Origin: Octopus vulgaris | Lineage: Eukaryota | DNA length: 64,000 nucleotides | NCBI GenBank assembly: GCA_951406725.2 | Contig: OX597821.1 | Coordinates: forward strand, 91,016,001 to 91,080,000 | Direction of reading: 5' to 3' | Notes under the pieces: model-generated | The model's database searches: none | Told to the model about the DNA's origin: nothing | Seen by the model: only the letters and a program-made list of their open reading frames with translations | Program-made: the position numbers and the translations under genes | Part shown: one piece after another, positions 1,086 through 51,250 of the stretch | How the letters are laid out: each line of letters opens with the position of its first letter | How positions within the stretch are numbered: position 1 is the first letter of the stretch

Positions 1086-2181
<1,096 letters not shown>

Positions 2182-8841: not shown

Positions 8842-8878
8842 TTAGTACAGGTTTCACCCTTTTAGACTTTTCAACTAA
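8842..8878 (-). ncRNA. Hammerhead motif, U3-A8 variant, relative of 3995-4037
   Basis: UUAG-UUGAAAA-GUCU aaaa GGGU-GAA-ACCUGU-A/CUAA. Downstream tail is homologous to 4032-4087 and also ends at (TA)n. Stem II is wobble-rich. Confidence 0.55.
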
Positions 8879-33212: not shown

Positions 33213-34649
33213 GGAGAGAGAGAAAGAGATACAGAGAGAGACAGAGAGAAAGAGAATGAAGGAGAGAGAGAATGAGAAGTTGGGAGAACGATACATTCAT
33301 GCATATTGTTCTATCCAGTTGCATAATCCTTCACACTGATAAAACTTTGAAGTGACTATCAATAACTTTTTATACATGTGGAGACAAATGTGTAATGAAC
33401 TCAGTGAACGGACCATGCCTTTTTCTATGAAGGTGAAATCTTTAAAACATTGATGGGTCCAGCATCACATTATGGATTTGTGGAGTGTTGGCAGAGGACT
33501 CTGAAGTATGAACAGGTTTGGTGGTAACAAACTAATCCTACTACAAAGTTGTAGAGTTTCGACCACCTCCCGGCTGAAATCAATTCGATATGGAGAGGAG
33601 AGTGGGTTGCTCACAAAAGAGAAGCAAGCATAGACGGACGGAAGGAAACAAGCAAGATATAAAGAAGATAATTCGCCCCCCCCCCCGCCTCTGTGTCTTT
33701 CGAAAAATATAACTTAGTCGACAAACACTGAAACAAGTTTTACGCTAGTTTAAATTTAATTTTTTTTTTTTGTTTTTTGTTGAATAAGTCTGCAAAAATT
33801 TTCAGGGTTGATAACAATCTAATTGAGAAACTAAACCTAAAAATAGATATTAACTTTCAAATTAACAATTAATTATCGAGATTGAAAAATAAAACCCTGA
33901 CCAGGATCGTTCAAATTAATGTTTTTAATTGGTTATCTGAGGTTATGCATCTTGTACAGAAGGGTAAATTGAGAGGATGATTTCGAAGACCAGTGCTCCG
34001 TAAGATAACTTTACTGATAAGGGAGGAACAACGATCGAGGTAGATGATTCGCCGAAACATGATATTACGAAGATGAATGAAGTGGAAGTCTAGAATGTTC
34101 GTGGCACAAATTTAGAAACATTCATTTGAATACTCCTACTGCAGAATCAGTCATTAACGTGGAGCGAACCTCATCTAGAGTTCATTCTAGGGAGTTGAAA
34201 TCCATGCTGAGTTCCAGCTAAGTGGAATCATCAATACCTAACGTAAATAGAGCAAAAGAGATATGAAAGTTTCCAATATGTCTGCCAAGTGAAACAGTAG
34301 AGCCCCAGAGATCTCTCTTTCAAAGAATCGACTGTAACATCACTTCAGGCCTAATTGAATAAATGTTTTTTCTTGGGAAGCGTATGAAGCTGAATGCCAA
34401 GAATTCATTTCCAAATTTTTCCGTTTGTTGACTTGCAACTATGTTGATAAACCTTCCACGTATTTTTCCCCACCTATATAATTATTTAAAACCAATTTTT
34501 ACTAAATCTAGCGGTTCACAACAGCTTGTTGAAATATCCATTTATTTATTTATTAATTTATTTAAACGGTGTCATTGGTCTTGGCCTTCAGATTCTCTGT
34601 GACAAACACAGTGGGTATGAGAATGAAAGAGTGGGAAACAATGCATTTG

Positions 34650-35400
34650 TATCGGCTATTCACGAACGATAAATCGCTATCGCTTTCTAGATGTTTATCC
34701 ACTTCCTAATATTGACGACCTAGCACCTTCTGTTTCCTACAATAAATTCTTCAGTAAACTGAATCTGAAAGCAGCATAGCATCAGATTCTACTCCACAAT
34801 GACGATAAGAGATACATGGCATTTCAATCTGATGGGCGCTTATTCCAGTTTATAAGGTTATCCTTTGGTGTGACTAATATCGTAAGTGCTTTCAAGGAGT
34901 GATTGATAGCATAATTACCGACAATGATATCAAAGGATTTCACGCTTATCTCGACAATGTTATTGTCGTTGACAAAACTATTAAGGAGCACGATGGGAAC
35001 TTGGCTCGATATATTTCAGTTTCTAAGAGACTAAACATTGTATTGGACAATGACAAATGTTTTCTCAGTCAAGCATCCATTTGTTACTTAGGATGTAAAA
35101 TAGAAAATAATTCTTTGTAACGTATTTCGGAAAGAATAAAACTTCACCTCATCGATTACCTGCTAAACAATCCCAGCGATGACTAGGATTGTTTCGCTAC
35201 TACTTTAAGTGAATGTCTCTTTTCCCGGACATAACTGAACCCAACATTGTCATTGTAGAAGAAGAGAAACGTAGACGTTATTCATTCGTTTAAAACTCCA
35301 ATGGCTTATGACACATACATTTACATTTTTCCAGGTGTTCCATTAAATGATGACACAGAGGATGCTGAAACCGCAATTTCAGGTGTTCTTGCAATAAACA
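34650..35400 (+). pseudogene. Ty3/Gypsy pol relic (RT and start of RNase H)
   Basis: DVYPLPNIDDL...FFSKLNLKAA*HQI...LFQFIRLSFGVTN / AYLDNVIV...EHDGNL...KC...YLG, then EDAETAISGVL. Stops and frameshifts. Confidence 0.88.
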
Positions 35401-36235: not shown

Positions 36236-36431
36236 AGTAGTTGAATGAATTATCTTAGTATGGATAATTCGGTTAACCGATACCTGGGTAGCAAATTCAC
36301 GTCAGAAAAACACGGTTAAAGCTACATGCCAAGGGCAGATATCACGTGCTTTCGTGTGGAAATTTGTGTGTTTTTTTAATACAAATAAATGAAAGAATGG
36401 AGTTGAACGACGATTTAACAAAATTCCTTTA

Positions 36432-36514
36432 TTCTCGACATATGTTTCGAAGGTTGCATATTCCTAATTTCGAAGGAATAAGGCGTGCATTATGCCGCCT
36501 TCTCATCAGGAAAA
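36432..36514 (-). ncRNA. Type I hammerhead ribozyme (left arm)
   Basis: Reverse-complement copy of 36654-36736. Confidence 0.85.
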
Positions 36515-36653
36515 ACAAGGAACTTATGTCAGCATCAAGATGAACAAAAACTCTTAGATGGCTGCCCACACGGAGTCCATTATCGCTATAGACTCCGTGT
36601 GGGCAGCCATCTAAGAGTTTTTGTTCATCTTGATGCTGACATAAGTTCCTTGT

Positions 36654-36736
36654 TTTTCCTGATGAGAAGGCGGCATAATGCACCCCTTATTCCTTCGAAA
36701 TTAGGAATATGCAACCTTCGAAACATATGTCGAGAA
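36654..36736 (+). ncRNA. Type I hammerhead ribozyme, canonical core
   Basis: UUUUC-CUGAUGA-GAAGG..(44 nt)..CCUUC-GAA-ACAUAUGU-C/GAGAA; GUC triplet, predicted cut after 36731; AATAAA immediately downstream. Confidence 0.85.
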
Positions 36737-36777
36737 TAAAGGAATTTTGTTAAATTGTCGTTCAACTCCATTCTTTC

Positions 36778-36820
<43 letters not shown>

Positions 36821-36911: not shown

Positions 36912-37598
36912 CGAAGGACACACATGGTGACACACATCCACACATATGGAGATACGCATCCATACATACGGACACAGTACATAGTCAAAAAGCCCATACA
37001 CACAAACATGAACACACAAACATGAATATGCAAAATATATACATACGAACGTACACATATACATTGGTTCTCTACTGCTGCATACACACACTAACATGCA
37101 TACAAGCACACACACATGCATACATACTTACAAACATACATACATACATACATACGTACATACATACATACATACATATAAACATACATACATACATGTG
37201 TATGCGCACGCACACACTGACCCCCACACTTGCGCACAAACAAACAAAATTAACACAGCTCGGATATTGAAAAGGTTGCAAGACGCAGCGGAAATTTTAG
37301 GAAAAATAAATAAGCAAATGAGCAGAAACTTTACCGGTGAGTGTGTTGTGTTAAATAATAAGGCACTAAAAGAGAATGACTCCCCCCAGACACAATAATT
37401 TCCCTTAGTTATTGCACGGTGATGGCCATAAGATTTAAGCTTGTATAAAAATACTATTATTATTTTTATTATTTACAGGATTGTAAACTCGGCGCCGTAT
37501 AAAAAAAAGCATTTGCACCGAAAGCAGATAGAAAATTACTTTGCATAAAACAAACACGAGTTATTATATTTCTTAAATTTGACAGAAATTGGGAGGCT

Positions 37599-37779
37599 GA
37601 TTCGCTGGTGTAAAAGTAACACCTTTAGTCATGTTAACAAAGGGATGTGGGTTCGACTCCCACGTGGATAAGAAAGCCTTCTTCTTTCTGTCGCGGGCTT
37701 ATATGCCCCTTTATTAGACTATTTTCTTTAGTCTTTGCACGGTGATCGCCATAAGCATTAAGCTTATATAAAATACCAT
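37599..37779 (+). mobile_element. tRNA-like head with a short tail (rare SINE or tRNA pseudogene)
   Basis: Acceptor ATTCGC/GTGGAT, D-arm GTGT/ACAC, perfect T-arm GTGGG TTCGACT CCCAC. Tail 37721-37779 is repeated at 37398-37457. Confidence 0.6.
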
Positions 37780-37803
37780 ATATATATATATTTATTATAT
37801 AGA

Positions 37804-37860
37804 AGGAGCTTCTACAGGACTAGAACTGTTTCATTCAAGAGAAATCTTCAGGAAGCTCCT
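37804..37860 (-). ncRNA. Type I hammerhead ribozyme with 9-bp stem I
   Basis: AGGAGCUUC-CUGAAGA-uUUC ucuu GAAu-GAA-ACAG uucuaguc CUGU-A/GAAGCUCCU. Confidence 0.78.
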
Positions 37861-37909
37861 GCTTCCTGAAGATTTCTCTTGAATGAAACAGTTCTAGTCC
37901 TGTAGAAGC
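37861..37909 (+). ncRNA. Type I hammerhead ribozyme with 5-bp stem I
   Basis: GCUUC-CUGAAGA-stem II-GAA-ACAG..CUGU-A/GAAGC; GUA triplet, predicted cut after 37904. Confidence 0.75.
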
Positions 37910-39185
37910 TCCTTCTATATAATAAATTAATTTTACTCTGCTATGTATTGAGTACCTTATTTACTGTGGTTAACCCCGAATCAACCCGGGACCTACATAT
38001 ATATATATATATATATATATATACATTTGTCCAATGTGACATTCAGTGCCAATGAATTCGGAACTACTGAAGAGTGTTTATATTTATGTTTATGTATTCA
38101 CTTATGATAATTCGTGCGGAAGCTCGTAATTTTAATTTGTTCTTCATATCTGCTACTTAAATACTGTCAGACCTAGAACTCCAAATTTAGGTCTCAAGAT
38201 GTTCGTACAATTTTAGAGAATAAAATTATTATTCTAATTTAAAACATATTTATACCTTCCTATGGGATACACTTGAGGAGAAGTTTATGTAGAACAGTAA
38301 CACTTGACCCGCATTCAAGAAAACTGTCAGGAAAACGATGGGGTGACGGTTGTAAGGGAATTGCCTTACGAAATTAGCCTTCTCAATTGTACTGCAAACA
38401 AACAGAAGACTTAGAAAAGGCTATTTATCTTTCCTTGTTCAACGGAGCAGACTTCATTAAGATGTTTGAATACGAAGAATCTTATTTTGACTGTTAAATT
38501 TAAACAAATATGAGCCAAAAGTCGATTATATTACATTGACTGACGCTACCAATCATTATGTTCATAACAAATATCCAGATGTTCAAATTGACTTTGCTTC
38601 CACTGAAGATATTACCTTATCTGAAAAATTGTCTCCCATGAAAAAATCTACCAAGCGATATTTCTATTGAAGTGTGTTCAGTTTGTGACTACCATGATGA
38701 TGACATGCTGAAGATTTAGCCCCAAAACATTTGAATTGTTGCAGACTTTTTCATCGATGACTGCCCCAGCGACCTGCACAGATGTGTAACACAATAAGCA
38801 TGTAAGCAGGAACAGATGAACGTGAATTTTAGTTATTGAAGAAAAAAAATCTAGCCTCCATCACCTGAATTTCATCGTCACTCTACCATTCTTCGAAGCA
38901 CCAGCGGATGCAATGTAATTATTATTGTTACTTCTGGTCTAGGTATATTAAAGTATTGGTTAAAGACTTGTAGTCCCCTTTGCAATAAAAGTAGACAGTC
39001 ACATATTTGCATCTCGGATACAGAGGTTGGGTAGTTGAACTAAAAACGATTTGGTTCTTGGTTTCGCTTTATTTCGTTTCTTAACCGCATGAAGATATGT
39101 TCGATACTAAATTGTGGTGAAGGTTTTTTCATCAGATCTTGAGGATGAAATTTTGGAAGATGGAAACCACAGTGGAGCTTGTTAT

Positions 39186-44039: not shown

Positions 44040-44830
44040 ACTTTAACCCTCAAACTGTTCATCGCCCTTGCTCTTGAAAAAGCTACTAAATCTGGCCATG
44101 AGTGAAGCATGGCTGTGGCAAGTGTATGCCAACACTATCGAATGTTTGCCTGTGCGCTTTATTGATTGTCATAGAATAGGACAGACGAATCGGGAACCGA
44201 TGCAGAACGAATAGAATGATTGCATTGCTTGGAGTAAGTTTGATTCTTGGAATCAGTACTCTCGTGTGAGAATGCGATCCACTTATAATTGACGCTTTGA
44301 TGCTATGCTCATTGAGCGAGCTGAAGTACTTCCAAGCGAGTTCCGTTGCATAGACCTTGTTTTATAAAAGTGTTTCTAAGAAGCATAATAATTGCTCCAA
44401 CATTTAAGTTAAGTGATGGTGAGGCATTCCAGAAGGTGTAAGAGAGTTTATAAAATCCATGGGATAATTCTGGGCTTTTTCTTCATTATCAGAAGTCACT
44501 GAGTCGGTGCCTAGATATGTCGTAGTTTCAGTGGGCAATCTGCCTAGAATGTCTTCATTTACTGCTAAGCAGTCCGAATTTTTAGGGGATAAGGTCACTC
44601 TATTTTTCATTTCTTCTCCTGTACAATTGCCAAATATGTCAGATAACAAAGAATTATTACATATGCATGCCTCAGAAATATCAATAGTATCTTCTGCGAG
44701 ATTATCAATAGAGCTTTGAAGATATCGACTTCCAAGTTGTAGTACCCACCTCGAAAAGTCTTGTTCATTGGCAGGTGTTCTCATGTTTTTGCGTAAGTTG
44801 CATTTGAAGGAAATTATCCCAAAATCAGTT
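44040..44830 (-). pseudogene. PIF1-type helicase relic (Helitron RepHel C-terminal part)
   Basis: NMR...FSRWVLQLG...LSPKN...YPMDFINSLTPSGMPHHHL*.NVGAIIMLLRN...LCNGTRL...LIPRIKL...FPIRLSYSMTINKA..QTFD.VGI.L..PCFTHGQ..VAFSR. Disrupted. Confidence 0.9.
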
Positions 44831-46487
44831 GTTACTATATACTACAATGAATTTCCTCAGGAATAGAAGGAAACGTTAAAATAGCTTTAGCTACACTACA
44901 TGCTCCGAGAAAAATCTTTTTCCTGTGGAAATCCACGGTTACATCCCACCATTTTGAATTTTCTCAGGCTGTAAGCAAATTGTGTCCAGATGGAAAAATT
45001 TGGGAACGTTATGTAAGTTTTTGTTTATTATTCAATATTCTCAATAATTATGAGGAATTATTTCAGATGTATCATTTTTATGTATCCAGTGAAAAACAAA
45101 CAGAAAGAACCTCAAAGGAAGTGAGCATTGTGCAATGTGCCGTCTATGAAACGTCGAGCTGAAAACATATAAAATTATATTGTATAAAAATGTATGATTA
45201 TTTGTAGTATAACAAAAATAATAATACTTTTTCGATAGTTAAATATGGTTACTATTTAAAGATGCTTACATTTTACACAAAACCAAGGGAAATAACTCGA
45301 ATTTAATTTTAATCCTGGTTTATCTCCTTTGGCGTGACAAACACCGACGGTACAAGCGTATTAATATATAGATATTAACATGGTTTTCATCGTCGTCATC
45401 ATTGCTATTCTTATTACTGTTATAAATATTATTGTTTTTCAACAACAACAAAAAATGACGAGATTCACAGTTAAATCCATGTACGAAAGATGGTATTAAG
45501 AAGCTTGCTAAATGTTGGAATTTACAAAATCCACATGCACAGTGTTGATTAACCAATGAGAATCAAGAGAAAGGTAAATTATTTGGTTCAAATGTTTTGT
45601 GAGCAATATTTAGTTTATATAATTAAAGAGTGAACAATAATTATCAAAAATGTCTTTGTTAGAAAGTCAATGCTCGAAATAAAATACTATTTGAAAAAAG
45701 TTGCTAAAAACAATATTTAATCTAGAGAGAGGAAAGAATAGGATGTAGACTGTAGAGGTAGTGTATAAACCAATAAACTGTATTGCGGTTCAATGTCAAT
45801 AAGTAGAGTATAACACAGATGCTACTGGATCTCCAAAACAATTATATGAGAATAGTTTTATGGAGATATAAAAAAAAAAGTTATTTCAGAAGTGTATAGT
45901 AATAATATAACAGAGAGGATATAGCAGAAAAAAATTAATAGCGCTGTGAAACACGAATTTTGTCCTTGGGGAGTAACTGGAATTTCCTATTTGTTTACCC
46001 CTAGAAATAATGAAAAATGGCTAATATTTCCTTCAAACTTTGCTTTTGCTACATTTATTCAAATCCCAAAGAATCCCTCTCAACACATGGCTCCCGCTTC
46101 AATACTCCCCCTGCTCATGATCACAGATGCACTAATTGTCAGCAACGAAGGGATATGCTCAAGGGGTTAAGGTCAAGCAAGTGACAAACAAATCTGTGGT
46201 ATTGCGCAGAGTATTTCCTATAATGATATTTCTGCTTCAGCAGCTCAGCGCTGAATCTGTCTGAAATGTAATAGAAAATAGGTCAGTTTCAAAACATTGA
46301 TGTGAAGGTCACAAAAGCAAAGTTTGGAGGGAATAATAGTCATTTCCTTTGATTTCTAGATAGAAGCAAAAAGAAAATAACACATGCTGACCAAAAACAA
46401 GAACAAGAATAAAATGTTTGTTACACAGTGTAATGAAATACCAAACTGAGAATGATAGGCAAGGAAACTACAGAAATGTATCATATT

Positions 46488-46711: not shown

Positions 46712-47593
46712 CAAGGTCTGATCAATAAGTATCAAGACTGCTGCCACTGTAAGGAAGCTAAAGTATGCAGAGCAAAGCTGCTTGTTACAGATTGTCCTTG
46801 AATGCTATTGTGCGTGCACACTAAATTTTTATGTTCTAGCTCACTTCTACTGTTTACAGTAGTGCCTGGAAGTAACGTGTGTAGCGTTGACCATGACAGA
46901 GAAAGTTATCATGCCGATTCCTGTTCAGAAGCCTATACAAAGTTGCATAAAATGTATAGAGAAGAGTGCATGAGCCACACACAGATGTACGAGTGATTCA
47001 GACGTTTCCAAGATGACCGAAAAAATGTCGATGATGACGAACGTTCTGGGAGACTTGCAACCAGCAGAACTGAGAAAAACATCGCAGATGTGCGTGCAGC
47101 TGTGAGGGGAAATCGTCGAATCACCATCCGTGAGTTATCAAAGGATGTGCAGATTAGTCATGGTTCAGTTCAGTCCATTATCACTGAAGATTTGGGTATG
47201 AGACACTTGTCTGCCAAGTTTGTGCCAGAACTGCTTTCAGCTAACCAAAAAAATCACTCGGGTTTTAATTGCACAAGATCTCCTTGATTGTGTGAAGAAC
47301 GATGAAAACTTTTTGAAAACTTTGCGTAGGCCTCTGAGCAGGTATTGCCAAGCTCTTGGTAAAATTTGATGCAGATTCTCTGCTCAACTTTCTCTGTGAA
47401 GGTCAATGCGACGATCACACGCTAAACCCCTTCATTCCAAGCATATCTGTAAAAGTAGAAATGTGCTAGAACGTTAAAACTTAGTGCGCCTGCACAACAG
47501 AGTTGAAGCTCAATTTCTGCTACACGGCTTTATTCTGTGTGCTTTAGCTTCGTTACTATAACAACAGTCCGGATACTTATTGATCAGGTTCTG
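46712..47593 (+). mobile_element. Internally deleted mariner transposon
   Basis: TA-flanked imperfect TIRs (caaggtctgatcaataagtatc / gatacttattgatcaggttctg). HTH region DDDERSGR...NRRITIRELS...LGMRHLSAKFVPELL at about 46900-47290 with a stop; the catalytic domain is missing. Confidence 0.9.
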
Positions 47594-50453: not shown

Positions 50454-51020
50454 TGAATTCATAATATTCTGTACTGACCCTGAGATGTATAATATATTTG
50501 TTTTAATCTTTACTGCCCATTTTTTCAAATATTCTCATCATACTGTTGTACGTTTTTATGTCCTTAACATGTCCCTGTTACCAAAGACTGTATATATACA
50601 TGTAATGTGGCAATTTGCAACAACCAATAATTAACGCAGCCAAACTTCCAATAATATATTTGTTTTATTCTTTTCTGCCCATTTTTTCAAATATTCTCAT
50701 CATACTGTTGTATTTTTTTATATCCTTAACATGTCCCTGTTACCAAAGACTATATATATACATGTAATGTGGCAATTATGTAAATTTTTTTGAATTCATA
50801 ATATTCTGTACTGAACTTTTTTTGATATTTCCTCCTGGAAATTACCCTGAGATGTATAATATATCTGTTTTAATCTTTTCTGCCCATTTTTTTCAAATAT
50901 TCTCATCATACTGTTGTACTTTTTTATGTCCTTAACATGTCCCTGTTACCAAAGACTGTATATATACATGTAATGTGGCAATTTGCAACAACCAATAATT
51001 AACGCAACCAAGCTTCCATA
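50454..51020 (+). repeat. Three partial tandem copies of a ~190-bp unit upstream of a hammerhead
   Basis: ctgcccattttttcaaatattctcatcatactgttgta...catgtaatgtggcaatt recurs at about 50513, 50675 and 50880. Confidence 0.9.
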
Positions 51021-51022
51021 TG

Positions 51023-51067
51023 TTACTTTTGACAATCTTTTTCCAAAGAGTGAAACCGGTTAAGTAA
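51023..51067 (+). ncRNA. Hammerhead motif, U3-A8 variant
   Basis: UUACUU-UUGACAA-UCUUU uucc AAAGA gu-GAA-ACCGGU-U/AAGUAA; perfect 6-bp stem I; about 80 nt upstream of (TA)n(TG)n. Confidence 0.65.
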
Positions 51068-51147
51068 ATAAACATCTTTTAAATTGCATTTTCAAACCTT
51101 CTTTCGTATATAATTCCACTCGTGCGATACCCCACAACTCAACTTTG

Positions 51148-51250
<103 letters not shown>

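Follow-up and report, generated by a model that had tools for sequence, protein, structure and literature searches.

The locus considered here raises the question of how a short palindrome with a hammerhead motif in each arm comes to be formed. The preliminary description attributed the turn to a fold-back at the ribozyme and assumed the same mechanism for a second, unrelated palindrome 1 kb away. The window, i.e., the whole 64,000-nucleotide stretch of Octopus vulgaris DNA that was analyzed, consists of AT-rich, microsatellite-rich, animal-type DNA. A scan of the window for exact arms of at least 16 nt around a spacer of at most 40 nt returned two hairpins of complex sequence, the present element and the palindrome at 36385-36783.

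The element is a 207-base head-to-head hairpin (37790-37996) including a one-sided tail, and it is the only copy of its family in the window (Table 1). Its arms are exact reverse complements over 67 nt (37790-37856 / 37861-37927) around TCCT, as had been described, and the orientation of the inverted copies is read from the hammerhead and the AATAAA. The arm had been taken as almost exactly one ribozyme long; the ribozyme is present, but the arm continues for another 14–18 nt, running to the AATAAA (37921). The right part of the element, 37928-37996, is by contig depth a 69-nt one-sided extension made of family sequence. The element is flanked by (TA)n on both sides, its TSD is unreadable, and no empty site was seen among the contigs. 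The stem-loop predicted at the end of the tail folds no better than shuffled sequence (z -0.31; 77 of 200 shuffles as good).

Table 1. Parts of the palindromic element and its flanks, in window positions.
Feature	Position	Strand	Basis or remark
Left flank, (TA)n, in the AT-rich terminal part of a tRNA-headed repeat	37778..37789	.	sequence
Left arm: hammerhead-bearing end in inverted copy, lacking the tail	37790..37856	-	exact 67-nt inverted repeat
Predicted type I hammerhead motif with a 9-bp stem I (4 pairs from the spacer), GUA cut 37813/37812	37804..37860	-	sequence and fold
Spacer TCCT at the inversion	37857..37860	.	CCT continues the stem I 3′ strand
Right arm, direct copy	37861..37927	+	exact inverted repeat
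Predicted type I hammerhead motif, stem I 5 bp, cut site 37904/37905	37861..37909	+	sequence and fold
Plus copy, core	37866-37872		
Plus copy, stem II	37873-37884		
Plus copy, GAAA	37885		
Plus copy, stem III	37888-37903		
AATAAA, 16 nt past the cut site, with a mirror copy in the left arm	37921..37926	+	sequence
One-sided 69-nt extension (tail), family sequence	37928..37996	+	contig depth
Small predicted stem-loop with A/C-rich loop, tail end	37975-37990	+	fold
Right (TA)n flank; single-copy DNA from 38033 on	37997..38023	.	sequence and contigs

At the level of a motif descriptor, the hammerhead of the element is a type I motif. The minus-strand motif described earlier was recovered at 37860-37804 and comprises a 9-bp stem I (AGGAGCUUC/GAAGCUCCU), the core CUGAAGA, a U-U followed by a 3-bp stem II with a UCUU loop, GAAA, the GUA cut site, and a stem III of ACAG/CUGU with an 8-nt loop. 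The plus copy (37861-37909) carries the identical motif except for a stem I of 5 bp, the minus-strand stem being longer because the spacer extends it. The conserved core is complete (CUGAAGA, GAA, A15.1-U16.1, A17), and the R10.1-Y11.1 pair is replaced by the U-U at the base of stem II. Passages of published work describe U10.1-U11.1 as a tolerated natural hammerhead variant (PMC3088659; axolotl HHR_Amex2, PMC7229834), and the U-U was consequently rejected as a sign of decay or novelty. A 6-bp stem I is given as the canonical length in hammerheads of Penelope-like elements (PLEs) in passages of PMC4209133.

The descriptor (stem I of at least 5, stem II of at least 3 and stem III of at least 4 pairs) was fitted to this very motif; it matched twice in the window, in the two arms that represent one event, and once in 400 dinucleotide shuffles, a contrast that is optimistic because of this tailoring. 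Rfam returned no hammerhead family among the 150 listed of 164 window matches, nor among all six matches of the single arm, and a mir-3199 match (66.4 bits, cut-off 100) was rejected, as it merely reflects the long hairpin. In the predicted ensemble of the 57-mer, pair probabilities are 0.72-1.0 for stem I, about 0.5 for stem III and 0.05-0.07 for stem II, and the active fold lies 1.2 kcal/mol above an alternative fold that sequesters the core. The center of loop 3 is the palindrome CUAG, and the stem III strand has a predicted self-dimer energy of -12.8 kcal/mol vs. -1.4 kcal/mol for the monomer. The whole-element transcript is predicted to fold into one hairpin of -128.6 kcal/mol. Since a transcript through both arms would form a 67-bp double strand hiding both hammerhead motifs, this copy is probably inert as a ribozyme.

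The abundance of the family was read from the contigs of four of 24 listed runs, mapped on 37230-38500 at 85% likeness and representing three organisms (X1 and X2, organism A; X4, organism B; X8, organism D). The summed depth at 37875-37917 is 1.02 million (X1), 318,000 (X2), 831,000 (X4) and 49,000 (X8), and the single-copy depth from 38047 is 57.7, 16.7, 45.9 and 8.09, respectively, which gives ratios of about 17,600, 19,000, 18,100 and 6,100 that do not represent copy numbers. In each of the three organisms the family is clearly present at very high abundance. Arm-level depth persists through 37960; in the bin 37961-38003, parts of which were passed over as repeat, it is 11,000-393,000. The high depth across the right 69 nt therefore identifies the tail as family sequence that is absent from the left arm. 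None of the 40 listed variant rows (of 91) lies inside 37790-37996, and 30 lie in the neighboring repeats; the copy would thus be near the majority sequence, U-U included. Single-copy contigs start at 38033-38036, behind the TA run, and are uninformative on presence or absence at the exact locus.

Relatives were also sought elsewhere. A pattern scan of metagenomes gave at least 119 matches, of which one in 119 combines a stem I of at least 4 with a stem II of at least 3; the 119 loci have no blastn similarity to the element and were treated as chance. An exact 30-mer of the element has 0 occurrences in the genome contigs collection and 0 in the viral contigs collection, and a 13-nt motif was not found in the supplements of PMC8557442 and PMC13282606. 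According to passages of the latter, PLEs are abundant in O. vulgaris, at 6.83% and 190 families.

The DNA to the left of the element contains other repeats. An abundant repeat occupies 37599-37780 (+), and its head resembles a tRNA (28.8 bits for Rfam tRNA, cut-off 29). ARAGORN found no tRNA gene. The 3′ part of this repeat (37721-37773) recurs at 37398-37450 at 85%, and the palindrome stands in its AT-rich end. The segment 37265-37401 is extremely abundant, with a summed depth of about 1 million in X1 and X4 and sharp piles of loose ends at 37265, 37305, 37347 and 37395.

By analogy with known insertions, the element is probably a young insertion, reduced to a stump, from an abundant family of Penelope-like retroelements. 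It would consist of two 5′-truncated copies of the terminal repeat (pLTR) that carries the hammerhead, one of them tailed, in head-to-head arrangement within a (TA)n run. Passages of PMC8557442 describe PLE insertions with an inverted 5′-truncated copy, a one-sided tail and a (TA)n target without readable TSD, and passages of PMC3846280 describe head-to-head PLE palindromes, with junction palindromes interpreted as self-priming. PLE hammerhead pairs on opposite strands, 100-700 bp apart, are reported in passages of PMC4209133. The element has the head-to-head inverted 5′-truncated copy, the tail on one end and the hammerhead in the terminal repeat. Since neither a PLE reverse-transcriptase ORF nor a GIY-YIG ORF is linked to the family, membership is argued from this anatomy and the high abundance, both observed directly. 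Among the ten scanned ORFs of the window, none matches GIY-YIG, one matches RVT_1 weakly at 2.7 kb from the element, and no ORF lies inside the element. The tail of 69 nt, vs. the usual 30-40, speaks against the Penelope-like reading.

Perfect inverted arms in a TA context are also what a MITE or fold-back DNA transposon would offer, and an assembly artefact has to be weighed because no listed contig bridges the center of this locus to its flanks. However, a MITE is bounded as a whole by symmetric terminal inverted repeats, and here 69 nt of family sequence extend on one side outside the inverted arms; an intact hammerhead core followed by AATAAA is no TIR feature, and hairpin junctions with other centers occur in independent runs. 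The probability left to a MITE or an artefact is very small indeed.

It is unlikely, but less so, that the element is no stump of a long element but a self-standing non-autonomous short element of about 137 nt, retrozyme- or SINE-like, which borrows a PLE enzyme. The very high abundance would suit such an element, as would the lack of an open ORF start behind the core, where the ATG at 37883 is followed by a stop after 4 codons; animal retrozymes have been proposed to derive from pLTRs (10.64898/2026.07.22.740005). On the other hand, non-LTR retrozymes are defined by head-to-tail tandem units, each with a hammerhead; the element is an inverted pair only, and no tandem array was seen in the window. 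In addition, a loose end in X8 contains family-like sequence for at least 30 nt (median 71) upstream.

The course of a Penelope-like insertion is described for the anole PLE. In passages of PMC11167929, its protein nicks AT-rich DNA and extends both target strands, reverse transcription begins at an internal site 111-118 nt behind the first base of stem II, uncleaved RNA is used, ribozyme cleavage is dispensable for insertion in vitro, and the tail corresponds to the stretch separating two start sites. The present insertion ends 124 nt (tail side) and 55 nt (other side) behind stem II. By analogy, a PLE endonuclease would have nicked AT-rich DNA, and the reverse transcriptase would have started at internal sites, at the tail end about 120 nt and in the other arm 55 nt behind stem II, copying uncleaved RNA towards the RNA 5′ end. 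That end may lie at the stem I 5′ strand, perhaps as a start of transcription that follows a TATA-like box by about 29 nt. The cDNA would run off there and then either fold back or be linked with a second cDNA, giving the palindrome. The turn-around would then mark the template start rather than the ribozyme cut. On an RNA that begins in the terminal repeat, the first internal start site would give a short cDNA running off at the RNA 5′ end, and with that end at stem I, such stubs would arise without ribozyme chemistry.

The inversion point does fall within stem I, as had been claimed: the turn lies at the stem I 5′ strand, where the right arm begins 5 nt ahead of the core, at a distance of 44 nt upstream of the cut (37904/37905). 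Because both arms retain the whole core upstream of the cut, the template RNA was uncleaved. Other copies add three joints within this element, out of 15 listed of 92. The joint 37834>37880 (X1, X4) gives a shorter symmetric hairpin with its center in stem II, whereas in 37851>37905 (X4, depth 183, 9 shared letters) and 37855>37936 (X4, 3 shared letters) one copy ends in the stem I 5′ strand. The differing centers indicate that the mirror half varies between copies. Of the three listed junctions, two end in stem I and one lies in stem II. This pattern is a hint only, because the short sides measure 23-29 nt at 85% likeness, two joints are flagged with intervening sequence not known, and longer copies cannot appear as joints with a query that has no sequence upstream of stem I.

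A further indication comes from a loose end (X8, three contigs, agreement 0.87, median 71 nt) that departs from the window sequence after 37857. Read by eye on the element strand, it has a 6-bp stem I AGCUUC/GAAGCU and, 29 nt upstream, TATAAATA; the family-like sequence extends at least 30 nt upstream of stem I. About 30 nt is the usual promoter spacing between a TATA box and the start. The TATA-like box 29 nt before stem I, seen in three contigs of one run from another organism, suggests that the copied RNA starts there. Passages of PMC3846280 describe a TATA-like box in rotifer pLTRs. This start-site step would not be general, since the Penelope promoter of D. virilis lacks a TATA box and has its start 46 bp ahead of an intron ending at helix I (passages of PMC2377424 and PMC4209133); both of the two studied D. 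virilis-type promoters are TATA-less according to passages of PMC2377424. Against a turn at the RNA start stands the one of three listed junctions in stem II, and against a sharp hot spot the absence of a large pile of loose ends at the center among 24 of 1254 listed. A hot spot peculiar to this family at the stem I edge is nevertheless plausible, and a template RNA start would explain it better than cleavage.

The version in which ribozyme cleavage or structure directs the fold-back in both palindromic families draws on the turn within stem I and on one other copy whose inverted arm begins at the cut site within 9 nt. It is highly improbable, since a template that keeps the core upstream of the cut was uncleaved, the turn lies 44 nt from the cut, the turn of the neighboring palindrome lies 68 nt upstream of its core, and cleavage is dispensable for PLE insertion in vitro in the passages on the anole element. 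An inversion made by cleavage was rejected on the distance of the cut and the kept core.

Stem I could also act at the DNA level within the same PLE origin. The cDNA end GAAGCT would fold on its mirror AGCTTC and prime the inverted strand, adding CCT and setting the inversion point. The spacer CCT is exactly what such priming would add (chance 1 in 64 for three letters), the DNA fold of 37790-37857 pairs the 3′ end with the stem I mirror in both the MFE and the centroid structure, and the joint 37851>37905 corresponds to the expected fully extended product. However, this fold is weak (-5.4 kcal/mol, z -0.84), the final hairpin of the window would require a second switch without pairing, the joint has a short side of 23 nt that is AT-rich and could be (TA)n flank, and the neighboring element turns away from stem I. 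The CCT itself may be native, as part of a 9-bp stem in a subfamily, or derived from the cap or from untemplated C addition, both of which are known behaviors of reverse transcriptases. A native AGG or untemplated additions account for CCT equally well. Self-priming is possible, though on balance unlikely.

Alternatively, the center could have been set after insertion, if a longer palindrome lost its middle through hairpin-induced deletion. Perfect palindromes are unstable DNA, and the joint 37834>37880 could represent such a deletion. Yet the arms have 0 differences in 67 nt, from which it follows that little time has elapsed since insertion, and the spacer agrees with the letters of stem I, unlike a random remnant, which makes a later deletion quite improbable.

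The neighboring palindrome bears on whether one mechanism can be common to both. Seen in full, it spans 36236-36783, with 193-nt arms, 2 mismatches and, on one side only, a 149-nt extension that reaches the left (TA)n run; its hammerhead has a long branched stem II, a minimal stem III and AATAAA directly behind the cut. The claim that the two belong to unrelated families is upheld: the element and 36385-36783 have no common sequence beyond 7-10-nt words, and homology was rejected on this ground. The right arm of the neighbor begins at 36591; from there it is 68 nt to the core (36659) and about 140 nt to the cut site, so that the turn lies at least 46 nt before the outermost predicted pair of its stem I. 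Because of this distance, turning at the ribozyme is not common to both. A common mechanism as such, claimed earlier, is likely in the form of the known head-to-head inverted-pLTR insertion of PLEs, argued by analogy; fold-back at the ribozyme would hold at most for the family of the present element, and there at stem I rather than at the cut.

The window contains further traces of mobile elements. A third hammerhead-like motif at 51015-51149 (+) has a U3-A8 core variant, a palindromic ACCGGT stem III region and AATAAA; it ends at a (TA)n run, is present in a single orientation, and its fold has no support from energy (z 0.45). At 8874 (-), close to a (TA)n run, a weak resemblance to hammerhead words (U3-A8) is probably due to chance. 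The broken reverse-transcriptase remnant at 34627-35120 (+) (RVT_1, E 0.0004, below cut-off), which we take from its motifs to be Ty3/gypsy-like, has no visible relation to the palindrome. The ORF remnants at 1368-2173 (-), 44404-44841 (-) and 46997-47287 (+) resemble the end of a LINE with restriction-like endonuclease, a Helitron helicase and a mariner transposase, respectively; Pfam gave no confirming match for these three.

The element is real, not a product of chance, and as an object it is probably ordinary PLE debris; its architecture has already been described. The formation of PLE inverted heads is called unresolved in passages of PMC8557442 and PMC11167929, and among titles, abstracts and passages from a literature that includes few subscription journals, no paper mapping inversion points against the hammerhead was found. 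A bolder and distinctly doubtful proposal is that the hammerhead serves integration at the DNA level: with the template RNA starting at stem I, every run-off cDNA would end in GAAGCT and self-prime on the stem I mirror. If true, this would explain concretely where the inverted heads of PLEs come from, and it would give a function to a ribozyme that need not cut for insertion to occur. The value of the family as material lies in its being abundant and young, with junctions that vary between copies. Mapping them could decide whether inverted heads arise by self-priming or from two cDNAs, and could show whether the turn is placed by the start of the RNA, by stem I or by the cut site.

Several known systems resemble the element, each in the passages cited. 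Animal non-LTR retrozymes (PMC7229834; 10.64898/2026.07.22.740005) are likewise short, non-coding, abundant and probably PLE-derived, with a type I hammerhead, but they form head-to-tail tandem repeats, whereas the element is a head-to-head pair. Hammerheads with U-U in stem II (PMC3088659; HHR_Amex2, PMC7229834) have the U-U at the stem's base as well as a firmer stem III in common with the element; they were found in tandem retrozymes or other contexts, while the present motif is known from sequence alone. The PLE type I hammerheads (PMC4209133; PMC6765202) have in common the type I topology, the intact core, the pairs on opposite strands and a palindromic loop 3 center that allows a dimer. 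In the element, stem III (4 bp with an 8-nt loop) is longer than in the minimal metazoan forms, stem II is short with U10.1-U11.1 in place of G-C, and the two motifs directly adjoin each other, with no gap of 100-700 bp between them. Compared with insertions of endonuclease-bearing PLEs (Penelope/Poseidon, Neptune, Hydra; PMC3846280, PMC8557442), the element is only 207 nt long, without an ORF, and its tail measures 69 nt vs. 30-40. Common to both are the inverted truncated head-to-head copy, the extension at one end, the probable microsatellite target without readable TSD, and the hammerhead in the terminal repeat.
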